Shown here piece by piece: positions 30,001 through 42,000 of a stretch of DNA of 60,442 bases; position 1 is the stretch's first letter, and every line of letters starts with the position of its first letter. The position numbers are program-made. This stretch comes from a virus (taxonomy: Duplodnaviria; Heunggongvirae; Uroviricota; Caudoviricetes), in IMG/VR virus record IMGVR_UViG_2660238269_000009, one strand, 5' to 3'.

Positions 30001-33000
30001 GTCCGGGCAGGCCGTGCTCCACACAGGTATCATCCGCTGCCCTCATTATCATTATTCACCACCAGTCGGGGGGGTGGTGGCACCGCAAAACGGTTAGCCG
30101 CTTTTTTCGCCGCGTCACCTTTTGCCGATTTTTTACCGGCATCCCCTTTTTTGTGGTGCGTGAACTGTGCCAGCTTATAAGCCACATCCAGCGCCAGCCT
30201 GGGGTCGGTATTAATGTTCTCCACCAGAAGACGCCCCATCGCTTTCACCGGATCGGGAAGACCGTCATCCATATACTCAATACCAGGAGATATCACCACG
30301 GGCAGTGGCATCTCCGGATTTGTTTCGTCCGGCTGTGGTATTGCAGCCGCCTCACGGCGACGGGGTTTATCCTCCTGCTCTGATTTTTTCTGCCGGTAAA
30401 CAGGAACCTCATCCACCTCTACCGTCTCGCACTGCTTACGGGCTATAAACGCGAGCACCTCCGGATCTTTTGCCAGCTGCGAGCCTTTAACCCTGGCTGT
30501 CTTCGCCGAATAACCGGCGGCAATGGCTGACGCTGTTTTGTTTTTCCCGGACATGAGCGCCAGCGCAAATTTTCGTTTTTGCGTTGTCAGCACAGCCTCC
30601 TCCCGGGTCCAGAATGCACTCAGCCGGGTATGGTTCAGCCCATTTTTCCCGGCGTCTCATGCCGCAAATGTTAACTGCTGCCTGGTTAACATTTGCTGAA
30701 AAAGCCTGTTAACATTTTTTCCGCGCAACAAACTGAATGATAAAGATAAAAACTGCAAAAATGCCCGTGAAGCCAGTTAACATGTTAACTGACCTGAAAC
30801 GGGAATTTTTTCTCTGCGTGAGAGGGGGCGCGGTGTCCGGAGCGATCGTTTTTTACGCCGGATGATACCCCCCGGGTCGGGTTACAGTCCGATGATGTCG
30901 TCCGCTCTGCCACTACCTCCGGACACCTCCGGCAGTGTCGGGTCCGGCATACCACCCGCCGCTTCACGAGCAGACTTTTGTCGATGGCATTCGGTACAGA
31001 GCGTCCAGAGATTCGTCTCCTCATTACCACCACCGAACTGAAGTGCAATTCGGTGATCGAGTTCACTGTCACAGAGGTCAACCACACGACCACAGAGACA
31101 GCACTGCCCGGCATCCCTGAGCCAGATATGACGCTTGAGGGAAACACGTGCACTGCCACTGACACGACGCTGTTCACCCTTCAGAATATTCACCCGTCGG
31201 GTATTCAGTGTTTTGATTCTGCTCTGGAGTGTACGAAGCTCAGCCATGTAAAATCCCCGTCATAAGGCAATCAGTAAAGGAAATAAATATGTCATCGAAA
31301 AACCGGACCCGCAGAACCACAACCCGCAATATCCGTTTCCCCAATCACATGATTGAACAGATCAACATCGCCCTTGAGCATAAAGGGTCCGGTAACTTTT
31401 CAGCGTGGGTTATTGAAGCCTGCCGGAGAAGGCTGGCAACAGATGCAACGCACCTGCGCCCGGCCAGCATGACAAATAACGAGAAATGAACGTTCGGTTA
31501 CAGGAGCAGGTACCCACTGTCCTCCAACAATATTTCATCTTCATACCCGGCGGAACAAGACTTACCCAGCCGGGATGTACAGAATAACAACAGAGTGATA
31601 ATTAATTTCTGATGAAATAATCAGGGTGCAGAAGGACTAAAGATAAACGTTTTCTTCACGCCTTTACGCGGCCTGTCCTTCTCAAATCGCCATTTTGCCA
31701 TCGCCTTTACAACCTGCTCATCAAACAGATGGTGCGGCTCTGAACGGATAAACTCAATTCGGGTGACAGTACCATCAGCACCAATATCAAACTTCACATC
31801 AACCCGTCCCTTTATATAATTTGCCGCTGCATAGGCCGGATATTGTGGTAATGCCTTAACCAACTGTCGGGGCATATCTGTTTTATGTTGCGTACAGCCC
31901 ATAACCAGAGAAGACAACAAAATAATTAACGGAAGATTTCTTTTCATTTTCATTTTCATTCCCGGCACAGATAAGAATAAGTCTTATTCTAACAATGCCA
32001 CCCTGTCGGCCATCAATCCTCTGCTTAATGGCAACGACAATTATCCGACTTAAATCACAAATCAGACACATGACATAACAGGTCTTGCGAGGTAACACAT
32101 CGTCCGGTTTCTTCCACCATCGCACCGGACCAGCGACCATGAGGGGACAACGCCGCTCTCCGTTAACGCGGTAAACCCCGGTGTGTATCGTTTTTGATTA
32201 TCCCCGCACACTCGCGCAGAGGAGTCTCCCGGTCGGGCTGCGGTCTCTGTTAATGCAGGAATACGGCGACAATACCGCGCATGAATAATAAGGTCGCTCA
32301 ACACACTGGCTGTAATGCAGCGGATACCATGCGGCATTTAGCGGCATTCATCGTATACTCAACGGTTAGCTCTTCATTCGTGGCATTCACCTGAAAGGTC
32401 CGGGAGTGTAATTGCGTACATTTACCACTGAACGAACCTTCAACAAGAACACGACCACGCTGCAAAATACGGAACGGAATTGTTCCCTGAAAAGGCTTTA
32501 CGGTTACCAATAATTTCTGCATGCATTCTCCGAATAACAAAAATACTAGTTAATACACTGAGTGCGGATATATTCCTGAAGCATTCTCAATGCTGCCTGG
32601 TCGCTGATGATTCCGTCTCTGATACCGAGAACGTTTCGTCCAGCAACCGGAGAGAGTTCGACGGCGGCATCATTGCCCACGCCGGAGGTGCCGGTGGCTT
32701 CACGCACGGTACCGGGGCAGGTGGCGTTGATCCGCAGGCGCTTACGACCAGCGGCAACATCAGCACGCAGAGTTTCATTTTCAGCTCTCGCATCGGCTAA
32801 TTCCCTCGAGTATTTTGCATCGAGCGCAGCAACATCGCGCTGGCGCACCTGCATATCAGTAATGGTTGCGTTTGCCAGCTCCAGCTCTCTGGCTTTTTTA
32901 TCACGCTGCGCTTTGTAGGTGATGGCGTTATCGCGGTAATGATTCAGCCCCAGACTAAGCGCACCACAGACCACCAGCAGAATAACGGTAAACGCGGAAA

Positions 33001-39000: not shown

Positions 39001-42000
39001 ACAACCAGCAAAGTAATCAGCTTGTTTCTCTACCTTGTCAAAAAGCGCCTTATCGTTCAAATAATCATCTGAGACTGAGCGATGCATTATAAGATGCCCC
39101 AATTCGTGAGCTAGGCTAAACCTTAATCTAACTGCCGTCTTGGATCTATCGGTAATGATTATGGGCCTCTCATTATCCCAAAATGAAAATGCATCAACCT
39201 TATCACCAGAGAATAGATTTGCTATAACTATACCTTTATTTTCAAGCAAACGAGTCAAATTAGGTATAGGTCCATCCCCTAATTTCCAAGCTCTTCGGGT
39301 CTGCATAGCGATATCTTCAATGTCTGATTCATCCAAAACCTCAAAATCCGGAATATCAATTTCCGGTAAAATAACATCAGGAAGTTGCACATATTTACTG
39401 CATTCCCTGAGAATTAAAGGAATCCAACGTCCCTTTGCACGACCGCTGATTCTTTCTTTTTTGTCGCTGTGCTCCTGCTTCTAAAATGAACAGCCCCTTC
39501 AATAAATGGAGATCCAGAAGAAGAAATAAAAAACCGTTCCGGAAATCCTAAAATATGTGCAATTTGGGTAAGCGTCTCTGGTGAAGGTTTTTTTAACCCC
39601 TTCTCGAAAGATGATATTGCCTGTCGAGAGATATCAAGAACCCGAGCCAACTCTGCCATGGTTAATCCTTTTGCCTCTCGAGCTTCAGTGAGTCGTGTCG
39701 GATTAATACAGCGCTCATGGTTAATAAAAGATATCGCTTTCATGTTCATTATGAGTTTTGTCTAATATGTTGCTCAGTGAGGAGCTTAAACTTATTATCA
39801 AGCTCATCATCAACCTTCTCAGCCTCAACTTGGTAAGGGGACAGAATCGCAAGTTTTTCAGTATAAATGATCCCATCATTACTTGAGTTAGGGATGGTGA
39901 GGTTAAGAACAGATAAAGACTGTTTTTCTCCGGCATGCATAAGATATACATGACCACCTTCAAAATCTGTTACTTCCACACTAACATCATTAAACAAATC
40001 GTAATTGTTTGAAGAATATACAGAGCGATATTTGGCTTGTCGTGGTAATGGTCCTTTGCCATCAAGATGATGGGCTGTTAAAGACCAATTATTTGAACGG
40101 ATCGTAGGGTGCACGCAATTTTTTGCAGCATTAGAGGCAATTTCAACATGCATCTTCATGCTACGAGCTGTTTTTTCCATAAAAGCATCGACGTAAAACC
40201 AGCGAAGATATGCCTGAGCCTGACGCCAAAAAGAACCAAACTCTTTCGCACCTTGATGGGAAAGCATATATGCCTGCGCTAACGACTTTGACAATTCTTG
40301 ACGACAAGCAGAATCGAAAGCTGCCGACAATTGTTCTGAATATCTTTTGAACATTTTTTCTCAATACAGTGATTGTTGGTGTCAACTGATTTTACGTTTT
40401 TCATTAACTTTGTCAACCAGAATTGACAACCATCTTATTTTGATATGTGCCGGGTGTGGCGCGGATACAAAAAAGGCCGCCAATAGCGACCTCAGTTACG
40501 GGATTATTCTGGGGTTAAACGACTGTTACTCCCCCCAGACAAAATCATCACTTCCTGTTCGATGCGAGCCATAGTGAACCTCGTACTTATCTCCCATCTT
40601 TCTTGCTTCCGTTTCTGCGTCTTCCTCTGTCGCAAAAACCCCAACAAGATGCCAGGGCGAGCTTCTTACCACAGCCCAACCTTTAACCCATCCTTTGTTG
40701 TCCTTATCTTCCATTAACACTTCAGAAACAAACATATTTATCTCCTTGTGGGTACCCAGAGATATTTTATGATTGCTCCCGGTCAGATCAATAAAGTGGC
40801 TTCAATTTTGCCTTAATGATCAAATCAGGGTGATTGACGGAATCGTACACCACCTCAATATTTTCATCCGTGGCGTCGATAAGATATTCTTTTACATAAG
40901 GACCTGTTGATTTTCCATGAAATACATCTTCAACAAGTACACTCTCCCCCTGAACAACACGAAAACTAACTTCTGTTTCGAACGGACCAATCGTCACCAT
41001 CAGTTTTTTCACATAGCCTCCTGATAAGCACTCGATTTATTAGTTAATGGTGTAACGCTGATACAAAAAAGGCCCGCAAAAGCGAGCCTGGTAAATAAAT
41101 ATGGCGCGTTGTACTGGATTCGAACCAGTGACCGATTGCTTAGAAGGCAATTGCTCTGTCCGGCTGAGCTAACAACGCTGAATACCGATAATGGACCGCC
41201 ATCGAGGACTCGAACCCCGCGCAACCAGCTTCGAAGGCTGACGCTCTATCCCGATGAGCTAATGGCGGTATGTGATATGGTGGCCCTTGCTGGATTTGAA
41301 CCAGCGACCTGGCGATTATGAGTCGCTCGCTCTCACCACTGAGCTAAAGGGCCGGGTGCAGGATAATAACGGTACGTAACTAATCCTGCAATATCATCCG
41401 TTCTGACTGGCTAAATCCTGAACTTCCCTGACCGTCTGCTCAAAACGTTCAGTCTCCAGCTCAACGCCAGTTGCACGACGCCCCAGCGCCATCGCGGCTT
41501 TGACTGTCGAACCCGACCCCATGAAAAAATCTGCAACCAGGTCCCCCGGACGACTGCTCGCGCTGATTATCTGCTGCAGCATTTCTGCCGGTTTTTCGCA
41601 CGGATGTTTCCCGGGATAGTACTGCACCGGTTTATGCGTCCACACATCGGTGTACGGCACCTGCGCCGTCACGCCAAAATACCGCCGCAGATGCTTATAT
41701 TCACTCTGCAGTTCCGCATACTGCCGGTTCAGTGAAGTATACGTCTCCAGCAGCTGGTGGTGGGGCTTCTCCAGTTCACCCCGCTGATGCTTCTCTTCTG
41801 CCACCCGGGCAAACAGCGCCTGTAATTTCAGATAATCACTTTCGTTCGGCAGTTGCCACTGACTGGCACTGAACCAGTGCGACACCATGTTTTTCTTTCC
41901 TGTGGCATCCACAATCTGTTTTGCCGTTATCCCCAGGGCAGCGCGTGCATCACGAAAGTAAGCAATCAGCGGGGCCATCACATGCTGTTTCAGTGCCCTG

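Follow-up and report, generated by a model that had tools for sequence, protein, structure and literature searches.

The late operons of lambdoid phages carry accessory genes, known as morons, in two insertion slots, one downstream of Q and the tRNA genes, where Shiga toxin (Stx) phages have stx2AB, and one downstream of Rz, where lambda has bor. The classic definition of a moron (Hendrix/Juhala) includes a promoter of its own, allowing expression from the repressed prophage. Here we describe two genes, referred to as copy A and copy B, that occupy these same two slots in the virus record IMGVR_UViG_2660238269_000009 (Caudoviricetes), a stretch of 60,442 nt whose full length is called the window below. 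The window is a lambdoid prophage of the Shiga-toxin type, without toxin genes, and is read on the minus strand; near-identical prophages are present in E. coli N51, a cerebrospinal fluid isolate, and in 2013C-3181. Both genes encode members of the family phrog_2571, and copy B, together with the open reading frame (ORF) that follows it, appears to form a conserved two-gene cassette. As for the known lambdoid morons, presence varies among homologous phages, homology ends in a sharp break, the GC content is below that of the flanks and a terminator-like site follows the cassette. In contrast to the classic moron, neither copy was found to have its own promoter in a consensus scan. Neither in sequence nor in fold is the family related to Stx, Bor or Lom.

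Two homologous genes on either side of the lysis cassette

Copy A (32298..32522, minus strand; RefSeq WP_001170911.1) and copy B (40788..41012, minus strand; RefSeq WP_000735807.1) each encode a protein of 74 amino acids, and the RefSeq coordinates of both ORFs are those found here. Copy A stands alone directly after Rz, with its ATG (at 32522) 23 nt past the Rz stop codon and a GGAG ribosome-binding site (32528..32531, minus strand) separated from it by a 5 nt spacer. Copy B begins with a GTG at 41012 and is the first protein gene after the tRNA cluster, 89 nt past tRNA-Arg(tct) (41102-41178), the last tRNA before it. The strong ribosome-binding site ascribed to this copy by the initial annotation reads AGGAGG (41017..41022, minus strand), with a 4 nt spacer to the GTG; both sites were read from the sequence. 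The lysis genes of the window thus are flanked by the two copies.

The initial annotation had proposed that these ~75 amino acid proteins are related, and had named a proper pairwise significance test as the point on which the proposal could fail. BLASTP aligned the two proteins end to end without a gap (26/73 identities, 36%; 60% positives; E = 8e-18), and their Smith-Waterman score of 121 was attained by none of 5000 shuffles (0/5000; mean 20.9, standard deviation 3.8, maximum 49; z = 26.5). The N-terminal pattern from which the relationship had been read, M-KL-VT--PF...FR--Q---VLVE--F-GK-T...AT-E---V-Y, agrees with the invariant positions in an alignment of 18 family sequences. Both proteins also matched the phrog_2571 hidden Markov model (HMM) over their full length (copy A, E = 4.6e-27, residues 1-73; copy B, E = 1.9e-26, residues 1-72). 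Copies A and B are almost certainly real, homologous genes.

At the DNA level the two copies are only 46% identical, with 43, 61 and 35% identity at codon positions 1, 2 and 3, a pattern indicating long divergence under protein-level constraint. The proteins differ in charge, copy A being basic (isoelectric point (pI) 9.65, three Cys) and copy B acidic (pI 4.97, no Cys). Related prophages have one copy or the other. In the common O26 prophage (O26 RM8426), copy B is present and a PerC-family gene follows Rz instead of copy A, and in the Stx2a phage LC567829 a family member that overlaps the Rz stop codon by 4 nt is found after Rz, with stx2AB where copy B would be. The window prophage therefore is a mosaic that holds both. 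Given the low DNA and third-codon identity, the pI contrast and the relatives with one copy only, A and B are ancient paralogues that were acquired separately by a mosaic prophage, and we reject a local or recent duplication.

The family had been left unassigned in the initial annotation, which recommended profile and structure-based searches. These searches gave the name phrog_2571, a family that PHROG labels 'unknown function' (as it does phrog_4280, described below), and no assignment came from the curated libraries either, with no match for either copy in Pfam (no hit at E <= 0.1), NCBIfam or PADLOC. An exhaustive HMM search of 1.84 billion representative proteins retrieved 54 clusters only. 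This exhaustive approach was needed, as a word-indexed homology search with copy B recovered no more than four near-identical clusters, its own paralogue not among them. Members with an identified source come from E. coli, Salmonella, Yersinia and Providencia, and most are stand-alone proteins of 71-82 amino acids. Long multi-stretch matches (P0093, P0101 and P0102) were judged to be spurious, these being repetitive zinc-finger or Ig proteins.

AlphaFold2 run on the family alignment with copy B gave a model of six beta strands with a mean predicted local distance difference test (pLDDT) score of 91 and a predicted template modeling (pTM) score of 0.78, and no signal peptide, transmembrane segment or lipobox was found in the family protein, which is thus predicted to be a cytoplasmic, single-domain, six-strand beta-sandwich. 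Conserved positions are mainly core hydrophobics, together with R18, Q21 and the G33-K34 loop, whereas the surface charge varies widely (family pI range 4.5 to 9.8). Structural neighbors were generic, comprising small beta-sandwich or jelly-roll modules (CBM6/32/35/36, a PNGase F domain, XepA and the FNIII-like domains of lambda J). Foldseek against viral models returned nothing below E = 0.001, sequence-profile searches of the PDB gave no credible match, and no catalytic motif was found in the beta-sandwich.

A two-gene cassette with phrog_4280

The ORF 52 nt downstream of copy B (40526..40735, minus strand; WP_000498121.1) encodes a 69 amino acid protein, hereafter the partner, that belongs to phrog_4280 (E = 6.1e-41, residues 1-69, 71-position profile). 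Using the partner as the query, we retrieved 80 IMG/VR loci. A phrog_2571 member lies immediately upstream of the partner on the same strand in 75 of the 80, and two of the five unpaired loci are cut at a contig end. The pairing also was detected in four loci (L006, L007, L010 and L011), which include Yersinia alsatica and Scandinavium genomes, and the partner directly follows family members in unrelated contexts. Together, these observations indicate that copy B opens a conserved cassette of two genes, as judged from gene order and sequence. The cassette is what is new here, both PHROG families having been catalogued already; we found no paper naming phrog_2571, phrog_4280, the three RefSeq accessions or DUF7336, in searches that did not extend to descriptions of the gene pair.

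Copy B and the partner occur in 110/5426 complete E. coli genomes (~2%), and the copy A type occurs, solo, in about 1245 of them (~23%), though for both phrog_2571 proteins the annotation says no more than 'hypothetical'. Family members that share 60-64% identity with copy A are found with a partner as well, between the endolysin and terminase genes, so the solo state of copy A is either derived or an alternative arrangement. A search downstream of copy A in the window detected no partner remnant.

Partner proteins are 58-100% identical among the viral loci, and 43-54% identical out to Pseudomonas and a cyanobacterial metagenome-assembled genome, compared to 25-45% for the family members at the same viral loci; the partner is thus far better conserved than the beta-sandwich. 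Its invariant residues include D, N, GWV, GW, W, Y, GSH and F, in the consensus motifs DxDNxGWVxGW and YGSHRxGSDDF, and a single-sequence AlphaFold2 model (pLDDT 75.6) predicts a strand-strand-helix-strand-strand fold.

Three other arrangements came to light around the cassette. In two Pseudomonas prophages (L013, 4236-4487, minus strand; L017, 4200-4619, minus strand), the partner is convergent to an ORF of ~80 amino acids that lies next to a gpK-like tail gene. This ORF resembles the family (FSGKCQSKGGY motif; hhalign probability 82%, E = 1e-5), with a non-significant HMM E-value of 1.3, and we tentatively suggest that, in a different orientation, the association is not limited to Enterobacterales. 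Four other Pseudomonas loci have the partner gene by itself. In Superficieibacter (L009, 3625-3936, plus strand), a different, beta-rich ORF of 76 amino acids (MRITVLDDDPGKK...), with no match to the family HMM, precedes the partner and may have replaced the first gene of the cassette. Finally, in one protein of 169 amino acids (P0070) the family domain is fused to a C-terminal motif, ...RRLIDSCIxESIxLxCRPGGLIWQxxRR, which also is present in a gene downstream of the cassette in L052 (3241-3801); a weaker ...KPGGLL... tail ends a gene in L009 (2786-3691) that lies two ORFs before the partner. This PGGL-type motif may represent a further recurrent companion domain.

Insertion slots, expression and candidate roles

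The family was found in three slots: between Q, the methylase gene and tRNAs on one side and TerB/nanS-p on the other (slot 1, copy B); between the endolysin or Rz gene and terminase, as a cassette or solo gene (slot 2, copy A); and, as a cassette, after a Big_2 major tail protein gene (slot 3). The region between the lysis genes and terminase is its commonest location across distant lineages, and distant solo members again lie between an Rz or Rz-like gene and terminase, with one Yersinia member in an early-left region near ParDE.

For copy B, the initial annotation had pointed to the place where Stx phages have the gene for the toxin A subunit, and the spacing agrees: stx2A starts 91 nt past the same tRNA-Arg in LC567829.1, compared to 89 nt for copy B. 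Since the protein is similar neither to Stx nor to any other toxin, occupancy of this slot says nothing about toxin function. The Shiga toxin A subunit, a ribosome-inactivating protein, is an N-glycosidase of ~300 amino acids with a signal peptide, whereas copy B encodes 74 amino acids and is all-beta; only the genomic position is common to the two. Because this region, from Q/tRNAs to the lysis genes, is the toxin site of Stx phages, the cargo of their toxin-less relatives is relevant to the biology of prophages in enterohemorrhagic and enteropathogenic E. coli.

DNA homology to Stx2 phages, which covers the tRNAs and methylase gene, ends at ~41056, 44 nt upstream of copy B. A terminator-like hairpin after tRNA-Arg (41070..41089, minus strand), in common with Stx2 phages, forms the upstream boundary of the cassette, and a second hairpin with a T-run after the partner (40473..40493, minus strand) forms the downstream boundary. 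The tail at the second hairpin is GGCCTTTTTTGTATC, and a similar tail is present at the first, raising the possibility that the two bracketing hairpins may be a recombination substrate for cargo exchange in the slot. L081 and L047 have the same terminator-cassette-terminator layout. Downstream of copy A, no terminator-like site was detected. GC content is 0.39 for copy B and 0.46 for both the partner and copy A, compared to 0.54-0.57 for Rz, lysozyme, methylase and nanS-p. Scanning the coding strand upstream of copies A and B for the sigma-70 consensus identified no promoter-like site, although a weak or atypical promoter would escape such a scan. Since the cassette is bounded by terminators and apparently promoter-less, it is presumably expressed late; copy B would be transcribed during lytic growth by Q-antiterminated read-through from pR', like stx2. 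That this is a late-operon moron cassette seems very probable to us.

The explanation that we favor takes phrog_2571 to be accessory moron cargo that temperate phages of Enterobacterales carry in their late operon. The beta-sandwich most likely would act by binding another protein, as it combines a conserved core with a fast-changing surface and has no catalytic motif. The role of the cassette would lie in phage-host or phage-phage conflict, most likely in neutralizing a host defense during late gene expression, and the partner may serve as a conserved component that binds a ligand or target. Taken as a whole, this explanation is a compromise across its layers and is moderately likely; its binding or anti-defense layer, taken by itself, is proposed only tentatively.

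The neighborhood of the cassette is where the anti-defense role comes from. In the window, the genes for the Rosmer anti-phage toxin-antitoxin defense system directly follow the cassette and precede TerB: rmrT (39749-40354, minus strand; RmrT, E = 2e-17), which has an 11/12 consensus promoter at 40416-40389, and rmrA (RmrA, E = 1e-73), which is split (39414-39749 and 38599-39390, minus strand). Beside cassettes elsewhere, we found a SIR2 protein, a PDC-S15 (FRG-type) candidate and a restriction-modification (R-M) specificity subunit. In three loci (L101-L103), an Acb2/Tad1-hairpin protein (60-63 bits, compared to a cutoff of 27) is encoded directly after the family member, taking the position of the partner, and in L006 such a protein is encoded three genes downstream. 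Acb2/Tad1-type proteins are known anti-CBASS and anti-Thoeris sponges; like the proteins described here, they are small and soluble and are encoded by phages. The association does not go beyond position, as neither the family nor the partner matched PF24729, even at E <= 10, or the solved sponge structures.

Several points weigh against the favored explanation. The case for an anti-defense role is made from gene neighborhood alone, the Acb2-like neighbors come from just two independent lineages, and the same slots also hold defense genes, toxins and unrelated cargo. Each gene of the cassette also is found solo, the copy A type in its ~1245 genomes and the partner in several Pseudomonas loci, so neither strictly requires the other. 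In addition, the absence of promoters comes from a simple consensus scan, which leaves expression in the lysogen possible.

Such expression bears on whether the cassette might itself be a defense or superinfection-exclusion system that protects the lysogen. The slots in common with Rosmer, SIR2, PDC-S15, R-M and TerB genes would fit this role, as would the low GC content and patchy distribution that are typical of defense cargo. However, PADLOC gave no match, the proteins are very small and have no enzymatic motif, and lysogenic expression looks unlikely given the lack of a promoter-like site for either copy and the terminator upstream of copy B, in contrast to the near-consensus promoter of the neighboring rmrT; we consider this role improbable. 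Also unlikely in our judgment is a lysis accessory factor made together with the spanin and modulating the timing of lysis or the disruption of the envelope. Across distant lineages the family is found most often in the slot directly following Rz or an Rz-like gene, the 4 nt overlap in LC567829 suggests translational coupling, and the two window copies flank the lysis genes, but a soluble beta-sandwich lacking export or membrane-anchoring signals is not what such a factor would be expected to be. Furthermore, the cassette also occurs after the major tail protein gene and after Q/tRNAs and the Yersinia member is in an early-left region, related prophages with the same lysis genes lack a family member, and the gap between Rz and terminase is a generic cargo slot.

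Two adjacent genes of ~70 codons on one strand, linked in 75/80 loci and located in mobile cargo regions near other toxin-antitoxin systems (ParDE, HicAB, RelE and Rosmer), call to mind a type II toxin-antitoxin pair in which the partner and the family protein are the two components. A DNA-binding fold (ribbon-helix-helix, helix-turn-helix or AbrB) is absent from both proteins, neither of them matches a toxin-antitoxin family, both genes are solo in many genomes without obligate co-occurrence, no upstream promoter was found, and the genes are separated by 52 nt rather than overlapping, all of which makes such a pair very unlikely. One might also think of a virion or tail-fiber-related protein, either a decoration protein or a domain of the tip attachment protein J existing on its own. 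A relation to J, through its FNIII-A or receptor-binding domain, was tested and was not supported: the J-domain signals (FNIII-A_GpJ and Ig_GpJ_C) were sub-threshold (Pfam E >= 0.02), and hhalign against the J protein of the window itself gave 2% probability. P0074-like proteins, moreover, have upstream of them a non-tail gene located just ahead of terminase, and most copies are outside structural modules. A virion role thus seems highly improbable.

Returning to late-expressed moron cargo with a binding function, a more specific and rather doubtful version is that phrog_2571 and phrog_4280 constitute a two-component counter-defense module, expressed late, of temperate phages of Enterobacterales and possibly Pseudomonas. 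The partner, with its invariant Trp, Tyr, His and Phe residues, would bind a host signal or effector that is conserved, and a variable host defense protein would be blocked by the fast-evolving beta-sandwich; solo copies, copy A among them, would act as inhibitors by themselves. If true, a new family would be added to those known for counter-defense, and the cargo slots of the late operon would be counter-defense islands; otherwise, the two would be an ordinary pair of moron genes.

Other cargo of the prophage

The late region of the window runs from Q through a DNA methylase gene, three tRNA genes, copy B, the 69 amino acid partner ORF, RmrT and RmrA to TerB, DUF3927, STnc100, iraM (opposite strand), the nanS-p esterase gene, DUF1378 and DUF826, and then through holin, lysozyme, Rz/Rz1, copy A, a TonB_C lipoprotein gene, DUF3950 (opposite strand) and HNH to terminase. 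Insertion of Rosmer after the cassette is rare, being found in 2/5426 complete E. coli genomes. The split in rmrA results from a 1 nt deletion in a poly-A tract near 39457-39462 (A6, compared to A7 in N51 and in the IMG/VR locus L029); this is a genuine frameshift that inactivates the gene or else an error of sequencing.

A search of Rfam detected no known RNA over copy A or B, and only the three tRNAs and one small RNA elsewhere in the region. The small RNA, a full-length match to the STnc100 family (RF02076; 37480-37692, minus strand; 139 bits, compared to a gathering score of 47), sits in the cargo region with DUF3927 on one side and iraM on the other. One of the tRNAs (41278-41353, minus strand) is called tRNA-Met (CAT) by ARAGORN and tRNA-Ile in RefSeq; it is probably the lysidine-modified Ile2 tRNA typical of the ileZ-argN-argO clusters of Stx phages. 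The iraM gene (37121-37456, plus strand; NCBIfam E = 9e-48) encodes a homologue of the anti-adapter IraM on the strand opposite the late operon. Its position is the same in the Stx2a phage LC567829, indicating that the cargo swap relative to Stx2 phages covers about 37.5-41.06 kb.

Downstream of copy A, in the post-lysis slot, a lipoprotein-like ORF with a TonB C-terminal domain (31621-31968, minus strand; Pfam E = 6e-15) is located where lambda carries bor. Upstream of Q, at ~43.1-47.8 kb according to the annotation of L001, are a PemK/MazF-family toxin gene, the IS4-like element IS421 (ORF at 46327-47514, plus strand) and hokD, so that the prophage has several further addiction or defense-type cargo genes.

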